The notes under the pieces are model-generated. The model ran no database searches, had not been told where the DNA came from, and was given only the letters and a program-made list of their open reading frames with translations. Shown in pieces: positions 4,005 to 50,880 of a DNA stretch of 64,000 bases. Made by a program: the position numbers and the translations under genes. The stretch is from Octopus vulgaris (lineage: Eukaryota), in NCBI GenBank assembly GCA_951406725.2, contig OX597814.1, positions 155,930,001 through 155,994,000 of the forward strand, written 5' to 3'. Every line of letters begins with the position of its first letter. The first letter of the stretch is position 1.

Positions 4005-4140
4005 AGTTCAACTTTACGGAAAACAAAAGACGAAGACAGGTGTAGGAACACAAAGCATGTATTTTAGTTTAACTCCTGGGTAAAAATGGAAAAGTCTTTT
4101 ACGTTTCGAGCCTATGCTCTTCGAAAGAAAGGATTAAGAA
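4005..4140 (-). mobile_element. Short repeat family A carrying a minimal HHR-like motif (4096-4131)
   Basis: Minus strand CUUU-CUUUCGA-A-GAGCauagGCUC-GAAA-CG-UA-AAAG. Homologous to 17090-17310, 20657-20832 and 50720-50880. Confidence 0.65.
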
Positions 4141-5449
4141 TGATAATAATAATAATAATAATAATAATAATAATGATAATGATGATAAAGGTAAAGTTAA
4201 CTCTAACAAACGAAGGTGCACAAGTGTGTGTGTGTATGTGAGAATAGTGTGTGTGAGTGTGTATTGTTGAATAGGGGCGAGTGTGCCTAACGTGTGTTTG
4301 TGTGCGTTGAGTGTAGCAGTTGATGTGTGCTTGTTGAGGATGTGTATGTGATGAAATAGTGTGCATGTGTATAGTGTATGTTTGTGGGCAAAAGTTATCG
4401 TTGCCGATGCGTGTTGCGTATGTTTATGCGTATTGCGTATATATATATATATATATATATATATATATATATATATATATATATATATATATATATAAAC
4501 CACTTACCACTCAGCGAGGTATTACATATATTATCGGAACCATTTCAGATGGTAAAATTTCACTTTAGCTATATAAATCGTATTAGCTTGTGGGCTAGAT
4601 ATAATTGCTGGACCTGTGTTGCATTGTTAAATTATTTTTGCACGATGAATAATGGTGAAGTAAACCAAGAAGAATTACCAAAGATGGAAAAATTAATGAA
4701 AGCTGCCAACAGAAGAACACAAAAGCATACAAAAGCCAGTGAAGCAAGAATTATAGCAAGAATGAGAATGCCTGGACAAAAGGATTTCGCATGGCACCGG
4801 TAGCAAAAAAAAAAACACTTTATAACGTAGTGCATGGATATGCAAAATATAGAGGAGATTATGAGCTTTCGCTGGCCCGGAAACAAAAGCTAAGTTCAGC
4901 TGTAAAGAATTATATACCTACACAAAGATTTTTTTTATTTTTCTGCAATAGGGAATATTTACAAAGAAAAACAACCCAGGCTAGATTCTGTAGGACCATA
5001 TTATTTCATAAATATAGTGTTAGAAGCTAACATGATGTCGTTTTGACAGCCACGAGTTGAATTAGAAGTAGAAACACGAAATATCTGTCGGAAAATCAGG
5101 AGTAGACTATGATTAGTTATCTCTGACGAAATGTAAAACTATTTGCTTGCTTCTGGTGTTACAACATATTTCTTTGCTCTTATAAAGCTATGAGCTGTAA
5201 ATTACTTTGGAAATAAAATTATCATCACCGAACTTGACAGTTAGGAATTAAGTTGCAGTATGCAGGACTCCATCATCAATTTTGCATCATTTCCATATCT
5301 CAACAAATAAGGAAAATCATTATCATAAGTTGTAAAGAGTAATAGAAACGGAAAAAAATTATAGTACATAAAGAATAATTGAAAAAAGTTATAATGTTGA
5401 TCAAGAATGATACATTATCAACGGTTTAAAACAGATTATATTTCTGAAT

Positions 5450-5900
5450 TCAAAGAAATGGATTCTGGATGCAATAACCCCTTTTTATCCTAAGCATCTC
5501 AAAATATTTCAGTTCTAGGCAAAGATGTGAAGTTTGACAGAACATCTATTGGACAAGCAATTTTGCATTTAACCAAACACTGAGTAATTTATGGCTTCAC
5601 TTAAATTTGTTTCAGGATTTCTGTTATCATTTTGCATGTATATTCTTCGATGTATATTCTTTTGACTTTGGATTATGTTGCACTTAAGCTGAGCTGAAAT
5701 GAACAGAGTGGTGTGCTACAATCGGTCAAGTAACTAAAATTCCAAATCTCACAGCAAAATTATCTGTGCAATACGATACTGATAATTTAGACAACTATAC
5801 ATGTACTCTTAATGATTAGAACGCATTTCATGTCATTACAGCAATTACACAGTTTTCCTAGAATATCAGTCACAGCTGATGATATATCTCTAATTGGAAA
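5450..5900 (+). mobile_element. Highly decayed DNA transposase fragment, Academ-like
   Basis: Manual translation near 5765-5850 gives VQYDTDNLDNYTCTLND*NAFH, similar to the QxxxDNxDxxxxTLDGxxTFH motif. The family assignment is from memory. Confidence 0.35.
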
Positions 5901-6079
5901 GACCACCTGTTGACTATTTATTTCAAAATGATGAGAGTTGCAATTACCAACAGTTAAAACATAACAATCTTATAAAGCATCTATTACTGCAATGTTTGTA
6001 CAGAATATCTCGATCACTAAGTTGAGCTTCTCCTTATACAATAATTCAACTTGTACACATAGACGACCATTTTAAAAAG

Positions 6080-7150
6080 TCACCTATTTTAAACATGCCC
6101 ATGTTTGCATGAAGTCTTGGTAACATGACATTTTTTTTATTCTACGCAACCAATAGTCAATTCACATGCAGAGGGGAAAAGGTTGCACTTTTGGCATTTG
6201 ACTGAACGTTGTAATTGAAAATAATTTCGGAAATGTATACCTTCTACGAGGGAAATTGGTTCATTCATAAATTTGGGTTGTTTCCCGGTTATGATAATTT
6301 TTAGGTGCATTTGGACACATCACGTAATGATTATATACAAGCTAGTAAATCTCTAATGGAAGATCTACTAGTATTTATATAAGAAAGTACTTCAATAAAC
6401 CACACATGGTAAGGCGATCTCAAGATTATTAAACGCAATGCAGACATTTGGTCCATCAATATCAACATTAGACAACCCTTGGAATTGTCTTCTGTTTCAA
6501 GATCATATAATTCATTCGTATTAATAAATTATTATCTCAATATGTTTTAAACATACCATAACCTGTTCAAATATCTTTTTGACCCATTATTATTTTTCGC
6601 ATGCGCTTTTATGACTCCCGAAAACATGGTACTTGTCCAATTCATGGACTTGTCTACTTGATGTTCATGTTTACTAGTCAAATTGATGTTTCTGTCTTAT
6701 GTAATGTAATCACGTGCACTTCGCATTTTCGCAGCAAAATACGGGTTTATAATGCAAGTATAAATATCATCAGACAGATCCAGTCTCTTTGAAATATGCA
6801 CTTTCGATAATTTATCCTATCAAATGCCATACAGTTATTTCCTGTATTTAACTTCAGTATTGCACGAAGTGAGAACATAATCCATTTTTTTATATCTATC
6901 TAAATATCTTTTGTAAATATCTCTTCTGACAGATTTACTTAGAACTTCCTTTGCAAATCCCAGAGCACCTTCACTTTTATTTCTTTGGCTACGATGATAT
7001 TGTTACTATTACAGTAATACTTTAGGAATAAGTTCAAACACACTGCATACACTTCATGCTTTAAATTTCCGGTGGTTCTTGTCTTACGAATGGCATTTTT
7101 ATTTAGCATCGGACTCATTTCTCAATACCATCCGATTTTATACATCTATA
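6080..7150 (-). mobile_element. Highly decayed piggyBac-like transposase
   Basis: Minus-strand remnants LMDQMSALRLIILRSPYHVWF (cf. GGVDxxDQ...W) at ~6400-6470 and KCQKCN (Cys-rich tail) at ~6180-6205. Many stops and frameshifts. Confidence 0.4.
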
Positions 7151-48701: not shown

Positions 48702-49540
48702 CAGGGTGCGTAAGTTGTTTGAAGACATATTTATGTTTATAAAAAATACAGATATACAATAACAGATAACATTATATATTTAAAAAATGCTGTGAGGATA
48801 AAAGTAAACCTTCTTTTCTATAATTTTATTCAATAAAGCTACTTTCAGCATCCGCTTCTATATGAGATCTAAATCATCAATATGCTTGAATCAAGTTGTC
48901 TCGGTTCATTTTGGACATTACTTTCACTATGACAGCTTTCAAAGAATCTTTGGTGCTATGGGCGTGTTTATTGAGCTCTCTCTGAACAACGCTCCACATG
49001 TAATAGTCCAATTGAATGATATCTGGGGAATTAGGAGGCCGAATTTTAGGGGCTATGTAATCGTGAAAATTTTCAGCCATCCATTCCTCTGTTAATAGAG
49101 GCATGTGTGATAGTGCAGAGTCTTACTGAAACACATATATCCTTCCATTACATACACTGTCTATCCAGGGCTTTACAAGTGTTTCAAGTACCTCAATGTA
49201 GGTGAAAAAGTTGACTCGATAGCCTTGTGGAAAGAAGTAAGGAGGCATCATATGTCCTTCATTGCTGACAAACCCTAAAACCATGACAGTTGCAGGAAAT
49301 TTTGTATGCATAACGCTTGGAACTTCAGAAAGGTCTGCACATAACCATCTGTCATTTCTTCTGTTAAATATTTGACCTTGGTCGAAGTTTTTTTCGTTTG
49401 GAAAAAAACAAATCAAATCTTCCTCTGCAAGATTTTTCAGATTTTTTAAGTACCTTTTAGATCTGTTGTAGTAATTTTACTTTTGCTTTTTCGGACAAAT
49501 TGACTTTTCCTCATCATATCAGACTTACATCTGATGTCTT
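48702..49540 (-). mobile_element. Tc1/mariner DD37D (maT-like) transposase relic with one terminal repeat end
   Basis: The in-frame ORFs give VFQ*DSALSH...PPNSPDIIQLDY, with 37 residues between the second and third Asp. TA-CAGGGTG terminus at 48700-48708. Confidence 0.85.
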
Positions 49541-49594
49541 GTGTATATCCCACATGGGTTTTATTTACATGCATTTTTATGTATATTTAGATAT

Positions 49595-49856
49595 ATATTT
49601 ATACTTTTTAATTACGGAGAAGTACTTGCATAGCAATTGATTTGATCTGAGATCGTGTGCTGAAACGAAAACAAATGCAGCGTGGAAGGTGTTTGTAAGC
49701 CATTTAAGAAACACACAAAAGCCGTTCGATTCACTTCAACATTTAAGTTTAATTTGTCAAAATATTTTCGTCGCTTTAAGACCGCGACCTGTTCACTGAC
49801 AAAAATCCGAGTTTTGTCAGTGAACAGGTCGCGGTCTTAAAGCGACGAAAATATTT
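49595..49856 (-). mobile_element. Short HHR-bearing element ending in a perfect ~45-bp-arm hairpin (49760-49856)
   Basis: aaatattttcgtcgc..ctgacaaaa / atccgag / ttttgtcag..gcgacgaaaatattt. The left boundary is approximate. Confidence 0.75.
49753..49803 (-). ncRNA. Type I hammerhead motif with swapped G3-C8 core
   Basis: UUUGUCA-GUGAACA-g-GUCGCggucuuaaaGCGAC-GAAA-AUAU-UU-UGACAAA: 7-bp stem I, 5-bp stem II, palindromic stem III. Confidence 0.75.
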
Positions 49857-50719
49857 ATGCCGATGTTTATTAATATCTATATACGCATTTTAAGTCGAAT
49901 TTATGACTGTATAGTATGTTTAAAATGTTGATTGCCTAATTTGAGTTTACATGTTAATCCTTATCTTTTGTCTCGTGTTAAACCCGAGTACTTCTTAGGC
50001 AGCTCTATATATTTCGTAAGAAAGAGCAATAATATTATATATCTATGTGTGTGTGTGTATACATGTATGTATATAGTGTAACTGTGCGTGTATTTGTGTC
50101 TATTATTGTGAATAGTTTAACAGTTTTCACACAAGTATATTTACGATACAAGAAACATTTGAAAACTTGATAAAAATAAACAAAGCATTTTCATTTTTTT
50201 CATCAAAATACGATACGGGTTTCAAACGCCTAAAAGGACAATTTAGTTATGAATATATATAATAGGAAAAATAAGTTGAAATAAATTATTTTTTTCATTT
50301 GAGTTCTGAGGATCACATGTTTTTTCTATTCAAGAATGACATGGTATTCGTATGTCGTTTCCTTCTCACTGTAGCTGGTTCGTGGACACACTCCCACTGC
50401 TACCTCCACTACCTCAGATGAAACGAAACACCAACATCATATGATTTTGTAAGAAAAACATGTGATCTTCCAGAACTGATATAATGGAAGTTTACATTAA
50501 TTTAGGTTTTTTCATTTTATATATTCTCTTACATCTCTTTGACTAAATCTTCCTTTTAAGCGATTCAAACCCGTTACATATCTCAATACATTCTTTTTTG
50601 TTATATATATATATATATATATATATATATATATATATATATGTTTAAGTACATTATATATATATATATATGAGGCCGAAACTTCGAAGTCACTGTCAAC
50701 AACATTCTTTATATATATA

Positions 50720-50880
50720 TAGGGAAAGTTTTCGAAAAAAAACAAAAGACGAAGATAGGTGGTGTACAAAACAAACAGCTGTATTAGTATAACGCTCAGG
50801 AATAGAAAAAGTCTTTTACGTTTCGAGCCTACGCTCTTCTATAGAAAGGCACACAGAAACAACAAGGAGAGAAACAATGA
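50720..50880 (-). mobile_element. Family A short repeat with HHR-like motif (50813-50848)
   Basis: Minus strand ccttt-ctataga-a-gagcgtaggctc-gaaa-cg-ta-aaag. The 3' end abuts (TA)n. Confidence 0.65.

Follow-up and report, generated by a model that had tools for sequence, protein, structure and literature searches.

Hammerhead fold families with variant cores on probable Penelope-like element derivatives in a 64-kb stretch of the Octopus vulgaris genome

The locus and its hammerhead features

The stretch analyzed here (the window) comprises 64,000 nucleotides of Octopus vulgaris DNA (assembly GCA_951406725.2, contig OX597814.1 or C1, positions 155,930,001-155,994,000) from a genome of 2.8 Gb in 227 contigs. 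It is AT-rich and packed with (TA)n, contains broken reverse transcriptase (RT) remnants, and carries type-I hammerhead folds in about nine multi-copy repeat families, attributed below to derivatives of Penelope-like elements (PLEs); every hammerhead site that was searched proved to be a copy of such a repeat. A preliminary description of this DNA, made from the letters alone, had proposed roughly ten unrelated families; about nine repeat families were recovered, two of which, named here by their coordinates 35865 and 37803, consist of 359- and 360-nt units of one superfamily (~70% identical). Eight of its nine named coordinates were recovered exactly by a structural descriptor (11203-, 12078+, 17702+, 35865-, 36525+, 37803+, 42785- and 49753-), with the listed cores present as given, and the ninth, 24911, escaped the descriptor and was found by homology as a decayed copy. 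The first searches returned 1535 candidates for family 37803, 2777 for 35865, 371 for 49753 (family E), 356 for 12078 (F), 1858 for 36525 (C), 2023 for 42785 (D), 1071 for 11203 (H) and 373 for 17702 (B), of which 40 were scored for each. The hammerhead features of the window are listed by position and strand, with a point for features that have no single strand:

4096-4131 (-): minimal hammerhead of family A, decayed copy; core CUGU-N-GA plus an extra A, 4-bp stem II and CG stem III in the family
11203-11244 (-): family H hammerhead, U3-A8, CUAG stem III; the family carries a PLE tail
12078-12173 (+): hammerhead of family F with the canonical core, a long stem II, stem III CGCGCG and U·U at 10.1-11.1; the element covers ~12026-12322 and has (TA)n at its end
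near 17176-17211 (+): family A copy, U6, decayed
17533-17780 (.): family B mini-element, head-to-head palindrome with ~70-nt tail at left; hammerheads at 17702-17739 (+) and with core at 17671 (-)
near 20746-20781 (-): family A copy, CUGUUGA
21039-21116 (-): second family B copy, core at 21108
24330-24975 (.): inverted repeat of family P, comprising a decayed hammerhead (UUGAUGA/CUUAUG) from 24911 (+) and a truncated arm whose core lies near 24388 (-)
35648-36308 (-): 1.4 retrozyme-like units of 359 nt and an inverted arm of 159 nt; U3·G8 hammerhead with CUAUAG at 35865-35909
36402-36611 (.): family C inverted insertion; hammerheads 36428-36488 (-) and 36525-36585 (+); the CCGAAGA of the window is a minority variant
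37724-38380 (+): 1.8 retrozyme-like units of 360 nt in tandem; U3-A8 hammerheads (U3·G8 in sister copies) with CCUAGG at 37803-37847 and 38163-38207
42752-43094 (.): inverted insertion of family D, a family with a canonical core; hammerheads at 42785-42868 (-) and 42978-43061 (+), stem III CGAUCG
49612-49856 (-): mini-element of family E with a tail and a partial inverted arm, its 5' end fixed ~20 nt ahead of the core; G3-C8 hammerhead with U17 and AUAU at 49753-49803
50813-50848 (-): family A copy, CUAUAGA decayed from CUGUAGA

Hammerhead folds compared with chance

A relaxed-core search against a shuffled control, of the kind that the preliminary description had proposed genome-wide, was carried out on the window and a genome sample with a type-I hammerhead descriptor in which positions 3 and 8 were free but paired, position 4 was U or C, and stem III was palindromic. 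With this relaxed descriptor the window yields 11 folds, and its 15 block-wise dinucleotide shuffles average 0.27; a strict version found 4 against 0.07. In a genome sample of 60 evenly spaced 10-kb stretches (600 kb, 10 shuffles), 24 matches with a paired 3-8 position compare with 1.9 in the shuffles, and unpaired 3-8 stayed near chance (6 against 3.5). By extrapolation, the genome holds roughly 1 × 10^5 such folds, family A excluded. The dense and diverse population of ribozyme-bearing, non-autonomous elements that had been proposed is borne out as far as the repeats are dense, diverse and apparently non-autonomous, but matches in the window are about four times as dense as in the genome sample (17 vs. 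4 per 100 kb). The expectation that a search for the canonical core would miss many folds is supported: 15 of the 24 sampled matches are fully canonical (CUGANGA), family A adds 10 BLAST matches per 600 kb that mostly have U at position 6 (U6), and a canonical-core search would lose roughly half of the folds in the genome sample; yet C3-G8 dominates genome-wide (19 of 24, with U-A in 4 and U·G in 1). Rfam detects none of the folds in the window; its 118 matches at E<=1 all belong to microRNA or small nucleolar/small Cajal body RNA models.

The hammerhead folds in the window are real, with the three-way type-I junction, stems I and II, and the GAAA and UH elements of PLE-type hammerheads, and it is extremely improbable that they arose as chance folds in AT-rich, repetitive DNA. 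Chance would account for about 2 of the 24 relaxed matches per 600 kb, and it would agree with the silence of Rfam and with the many singleton and low-complexity clusters produced by a very loose descriptor (562 matches, many of them duplicates or of low complexity, which served only to list families); against it stand a 12- to 40-fold enrichment over shuffles, the fact that every listed site belongs to a family of many copies in which the fold precedes a fixed 3' end, and covariation among homologues. Chance is refuted for the listed sites, and survives only for the unnamed "weaker ones" of the preliminary description.

Core states of the families

Comparison of copies distinguishes family states from mutations of single copies. 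The core CUGAAGA was found in 22 of 25 copies of family F and in 21 of 27 aligned arms of family C (CCGAAGA in three, two of them in the window), and CUGAUGA in 20 of 23 copies of family D, where the CCGAUGA at 42981 is private to that copy; in C and D, therefore, C instead of U at position 4 (U4C) is not a family trait, the C4 of the window being a copy-level change. C4 is the family state in B (20 of 21), as are UUGAUAA with U3-A8 in H (18 of 21), UUGACGA with U3·G8 in the 35865 family (29 of 29), and G3-C8 in E (95 of 100 among the matches listed first of 6,024 exact matches; control 0). The 37803 family contains 39 U3-A8 and 29 U3·G8 ribozymes in 30 partly overlapping loci, and the four relatives of the decayed 24911 copy in which a core is present have CUGAUGA, three of them with CAUAUG as stem III. 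In family E, U17 would avoid the G3-C17 mispair implied by a remark in the accessible passages of PMC3884650.

The diverse cores that the preliminary description regarded as family features are such for U3-A8, U3·G8 and G3-C8, but the odd cores at 36525, 42981 and 24911 turned out to be copy-level mutations. Its statement that positions 3 and 8 remain paired held for C-G, U·G, U-A and G-C, and the 3-8 pair belongs to the active hammerhead conformation. Palindromic helices III that permit a dimer are present throughout, and the even palindromes it had listed were confirmed; those at 17702 (CUCAGAG) and 36525 (CUCGGAG), in families B and C, are odd and centrally mismatched. A CUGANGA core, or its U3-A8 form, occurs in families C, D, F, P, H and 37803, but not in A (U6), E (G3-C8), B (C4) or 35865 (U3·G8); these four depart from the published core consensus and, to judge from their sequences, are variants of PLE hammerheads. 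The 10.1-11.1 pair is G-C in A, E and most relatives of P, U·U in F, D and 37803, and G·U in 35865.

Outside the window, five sampled loci represent further hammerhead families, among them some with U3-A8 and CCGG or CGCG as stem III and some in inverted or tandem pairs. A very abundant repeat (window 29950-30051, minus strand; about six copies per 600 kb) has a head of hammerhead-like layout with the core ACGACGA (A3·G8 unpaired) and without stem III, and may represent a degenerate hammerhead or another structured head.

Family A and the U at core position 6

The most abundant hammerhead family, A, has U instead of A at position 6, which had been overlooked in the preliminary description; its ten BLAST matches per 600 kb suggest 4-5 × 10^4 copies genome-wide. 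Among 14,929 exact 30-mer matches in the genome, 14,429 have U6, 141 A6, and 359 C6 or G6, and reversed controls gave 0. A canonical sibling subfamily inside family A appears unneeded, since A6 and C6/G6 amount to 1% and 2.5% of U6, as point mutation would give. Position 7 is variable (U 44, A 25, C 20 and G 11 in a hand count among the first 100 matches listed), and its states largely track subfamilies when 20 loci, picked with the exact pattern, are placed in a tree. In 25 copies gathered by profile, the majority frequency is 0.92 for the fold, 0.84 for U6, 0.82 for the 3' flank, 0.66 for the 5' flank (lowered by truncation), and 0.32 for position 7. U6 has thus persisted through several rounds of amplification, during which position 7, the only free position of the hammerhead, drifted. 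A sister clade has A6, mixed U4/C4 and a compensated stem I (eight copies per 600 kb).

Retrozyme-like units and covariation

The units at 35865 and 37803 have the sequence properties of retrozymes: tandem units within 170-400 nt, one type-I hammerhead in each, and a GC content below 50% (43-45%); they are also highly self-paired, with circular minimum free energies at z -4.6 and -3.7 relative to 100 shuffles. The 360-nt units insert as one to four units. A profile built from both retrieves more distant relatives, whose cores are C3-G8 and U3-A8 and whose palindromes differ, and changes in stem III within the superfamily preserve the palindrome. Across seven diverged homologues of this superfamily, 92% of the cells are paired, against 28-51% in slid controls, and 8 of 15 pairs have changed on both sides; the 3-8 pair is U-A in four, U·G in two and C-G in one. 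For G3-C8, no homologue with another pair occurs in these data, and its covariation is seen across families only. The two-copy fold of 37803 has the dimeric hammerhead as its minimum-energy structure.

Units differ less within a locus than between loci (1.6% vs. 2.8%, and 2.6% vs. 4.1%), and few of the within-locus differences recur; this pattern fits one reiterated template, although linear tandem parents would also be compatible. Of the sequencing runs that contain the query words, none is recorded as RNA; fourteen runs (RNA status guessed, contigs only) contain 26-53% of the words. In three of these, 29-30 of the 30 bins of the 37803 unit are covered and its head-to-tail joint is present, a joint that a DNA-like run shows as well. 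The 37803 retrozyme lies between the two arms of an inverted repeat of 185 nt (37063-37247 and 39998-40182), which are 99% complementary, 2.75 kb from each other, and may belong to a young DNA transposon.

Insertion anatomy

Downstream of the ribozyme there are two fixed points, ~35-70 nt apart and beside (TA)n, and copies stop at one or the other; an inverted, 5'-truncated arm is frequent. Tails were counted in families B, E, 37803 and 35865, in 91 top-scoring loci, 33 of which were set aside as one-ended, truncated or unorientable; exactly one tail was found in 53 of the 58 two-ended copies. This applies to 15 of 15 in family B (21 examined), with 8 tails left and 7 right of the center; to 17 of 18 in family E (25 examined), with 9 left, 8 right and one copy tailed on both sides; to 14 of 16 in the 37803 family (26 examined); and to 7 of 9 in the 35865 family (19 examined). 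The side of the tail is independent of the orientation of the central loop (B 8:7, E 9:8). Twenty family E loci taken in genome order share a fixed 5' end ~20 nt before the core; about half are solo, and about half have a variably truncated inverted arm. Two solo copies of family B begin at the palindrome center, just before stem I. These unbiased E loci led us to abandon the notion of B and E as invariably fixed palindromes; the fixed, symmetrical terminal inverted repeats and whole-unit movement of miniature inverted-repeat transposable elements (MITEs) are lacking in both, whose ends are asymmetric, whose arms are often solo and whose junctions vary. One-ended tails, inverted 5'-truncated copies, partial tandems and AT or (TA)n targets together form the insertion anatomy of PLEs, and in its available passages PMC8557442 treats tail and inverted arm as PLE hallmarks.

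Several palindromes of family E combine two arm subtypes (loop-2 variants), which suggests two template RNAs, or a mixed template, per insertion. At 20640-21116 (minus strand), the 3' end and tail of a family B copy are joined, with (TA)n in between, to upstream sequence of a family A copy, as a composite or by template switch.

Proposed mobilization and its alternatives

We consider it probable that these elements derive from PLEs, are mostly non-autonomous, and owe their movement to the RT/GIY-YIG protein of a PLE, which uses both nicked strands for priming, starts at two sites in the RNA and copies it uncleaved. The carriers would be about nine families of PLE derivatives: 3'-end remnants, hammerhead-headed mini-elements of ~150-300 nt (B and E, probably also A, F and H), and ~360-nt retrozymes without long terminal repeats (non-LTR retrozymes; 35865 and 37803). 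The protein, supplied in trans, would nick both strands of AT-rich DNA; reverse transcription would be primed twice, once at each of the two start sites ~35-70 nt apart, and head-to-head joining of the two cDNAs would yield an inverted insertion with the tail on one end, or, where both cDNAs reach the fixed 5' end, a palindrome whose center faces either way. The hammerhead is probably a slow, dimeric and protein-assisted ribozyme, its dimer formed through the palindromic stem III; it would serve to process tandem transcripts (into circles in the case of retrozymes), and selection would keep the fold and the 3-8 pair but tolerate rate-lowering cores (U3·G8, G3-C8, U4C, U6). In favor of this interpretation are the enrichment over shuffles, the covariation in the retrozyme superfamily, the dimeric fold of 37803, the one-tail rule, the fixed 5' start of solo B and E copies, the variable truncation of inverted E arms, and the fact that none of the truncated 37803-family pieces listed starts where cleavage is predicted. 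A closely similar machinery is known from the anole Poseidon element PAc (Frangieh et al., 2024; PMC11167929), whose protein nicks and extends both strands of AT-rich targets, with two RT start sites that define the tail and an uncleaved RNA as template, and whose hammerhead needs protein. PAc is autonomous and has a canonical core, in which the engineered C3G/G8C exchange partly restores cleavage, whereas in the octopus G3-C8 is natural and the elements have no visible open reading frame (ORF) of their own.

Several observations weigh against this interpretation. No hammerhead family adjoins an intact PLE ORF in the ~1 Mb searched, and self-cleavage and expression of all families are predictions from sequence; where a palindrome is complete, its antisense arm would be expected to mask the ribozyme. 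The seven homologues used for covariation are related and were partly picked by a hammerhead-shaped pattern, shuffle counts are not probabilities, and eight of the nine two-copy folds are not full dimeric hammerheads at minimum energy. The selection of loci for the tail counts is a further reservation, and family E shows 8 close pairs among the first 100 exact matches listed, so that fixed palindromes are a minority in this family.

The one-sided tails and palindromes could alternatively result from endonuclease resolution, or from later recombination, of a singly primed, whole-palindrome or MITE-like unit. The accessible part of Craig 2021 attributes the tail to endonuclease-mediated resolution, several E palindromes have two different arm types, and B and E resemble MITEs in their TA targets; yet solo copies have a fixed 5' end, second arms are variably truncated, tail side is independent of center orientation in both arm subtypes of B, and the one-tail rule extends to retrozymes with random junctions. 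We regard this origin as rather unlikely. It would be compatible with another doubtful alternative, in which the folds are kept as protein-binding or priming structures and the variant cores, especially U6 in A and those of the palindromic B and E, are catalytically dead. Such a role would suit the prevalence of U6 in the most abundant family, the slow cleavage (<0.1/min) of a natural A6C variant given in the accessible passages of PMC3088659, and the finding that cleavage is dispensable for PLE insertion in vitro (PMC11167929); moreover, the cleavage site (query position 119) is not the start of any truncated piece listed for the 37803 family, the nearest starts being 114 and 126. The single-stranded core is nevertheless conserved in the pattern peculiar to the hammerhead (25 family A copies, with position 7 far below fold and 3' flank), and the 3-8 pair of the active conformation is kept through compensatory change.

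Within twin-primed PLE mobilization, the role of the U6 family, whose core state does not occur in the published descriptors consulted, is a more tentative matter: conceivably it still works, as a protein-assisted dimer, or has become a non-catalytic PLE recognition fold under ongoing selection. Family A, with tens of thousands of copies that keep the whole core except A6 as position 7 drifts, separates a slow ribozyme from a binding fold, and these natural sequences can be used to address the open role of PLE hammerheads, whose cleavage is dispensable in vitro. If the proposal is correct, U6, the natural G3-C8 and U3·G8 families and the PLE-tailed retrozymes imply that PLE parasites explore a wider hammerhead core than is known, and that twin-primed reverse transcription by PLEs is what mobilizes the retrozymes of animals. 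The tails and inverted arms left by insertion are direct genomic evidence as to the mobilizing machinery, hitherto argued from co-occurrence and phylogeny.

Relation to known hammerheads and retrozymes

Very many PLE variants with a short stem III reportedly cleave as dimers. The minimal type-I hammerheads of PLEs (Cervera and de la Peña, 2014; PMC4209133) share with the octopus families, in the passages that could be searched, the type-I topology, a U-rich flank, an extra nucleotide between 9 and 10.1, a palindromic helix III, many families per genome, opposite-strand pairs 100-700 bp apart, and a U3-A8 variant (~1,300 in Schistosoma). In comparison with these passages, family-wide U6, G3-C8, U3·G8 and U4C, and mini-elements with a fixed 5' end at stem I, are found only here; the estimated 1 × 10^5 descriptor-grade folds in 2.8 Gb compare with ~9,000 in Xenopus. 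The searched passages of the supplement contain no octopus entry and no CUGU-N-GA core, one file lying outside this scope. Natural U3-A8, U4C and U10.1·U11.1 variants and the slow A6C appear in the accessible passages of Perreault et al. (2011; PMC3088659), where A6U and a natural G3-C8 are absent; those of PMC3884650 give G3-C8 only as an engineered variant, and those of PMC11014351 lack A6U. As far as these passages of PMC4209133 and PMC3088659 extend, U3-A8, the palindromic helix III and the extreme variety of PLE hammerheads within a genome are already published.

The non-LTR retrozymes of metazoa, as described in the available passages of Cervera and de la Peña (2020; PMC7229834) and of a preprint by Li et al. 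(10.64898/2026.07.22.740005), resemble the 35865 and 37803 units in having tandem units of 350-390 nt (in mussel), one type-I hammerhead per unit, a GC content below 50% and a strongly self-paired circular fold; the octopus units differ by their U3 core, a 6-nt palindromic helix III, and insertions of one to four units with PLE tail and inverted arm. In these passages, PLEs are named merely as a strong candidate mobilizer (PMC7229834), and the preprint argues from the phylogeny of pseudo-long terminal repeats (pLTRs), without the word "tail." The literature search returned no natural A6U or G3-C8 family (subscription papers such as Lunse 2017 and some supplements, which may bear on this, fell outside its scope), no report of PLE tails on non-LTR retrozymes (preprint supplements likewise outside), and no report on octopus hammerheads. 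The U6 of family A, the G3-C8 family and the PLE tails on non-LTR retrozymes were not found in the searchable papers, and are new in relation to them.

ORF remnants and other repeats

The PLE-type ORFs that were found are broken remnants only, none of them clearly tied to a hammerhead family, and tblastn of the remnants in the window against ~1 Mb gave six loci, none with a clear pLTR-ORF link. The most extensive remnant is:

22831-24276 (-): 5'-truncated PLE-like ORF remnant; C-terminal part of RT, stop, GIY-YIG-like part; RVT_1 at E 5e-4, below cut-off

Neighbor clusters of this remnant contain GIY-YIG in 13-18% of their members. Further broken PLE-like pieces lie at 1965-2760 and 45950-46854, both on the minus strand, and comprise a GIY-YIG-like end and an N-terminal RT part, the latter with what we take to be the DKG motif. 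Between 12384 and 16000, two RT remnants of the long interspersed nuclear element type lie in inverted orientation and are 70-73% alike. Long inverted repeats without a descriptor match occur at 47534-47730, paired with 48100-48295, and at 27945-28404.

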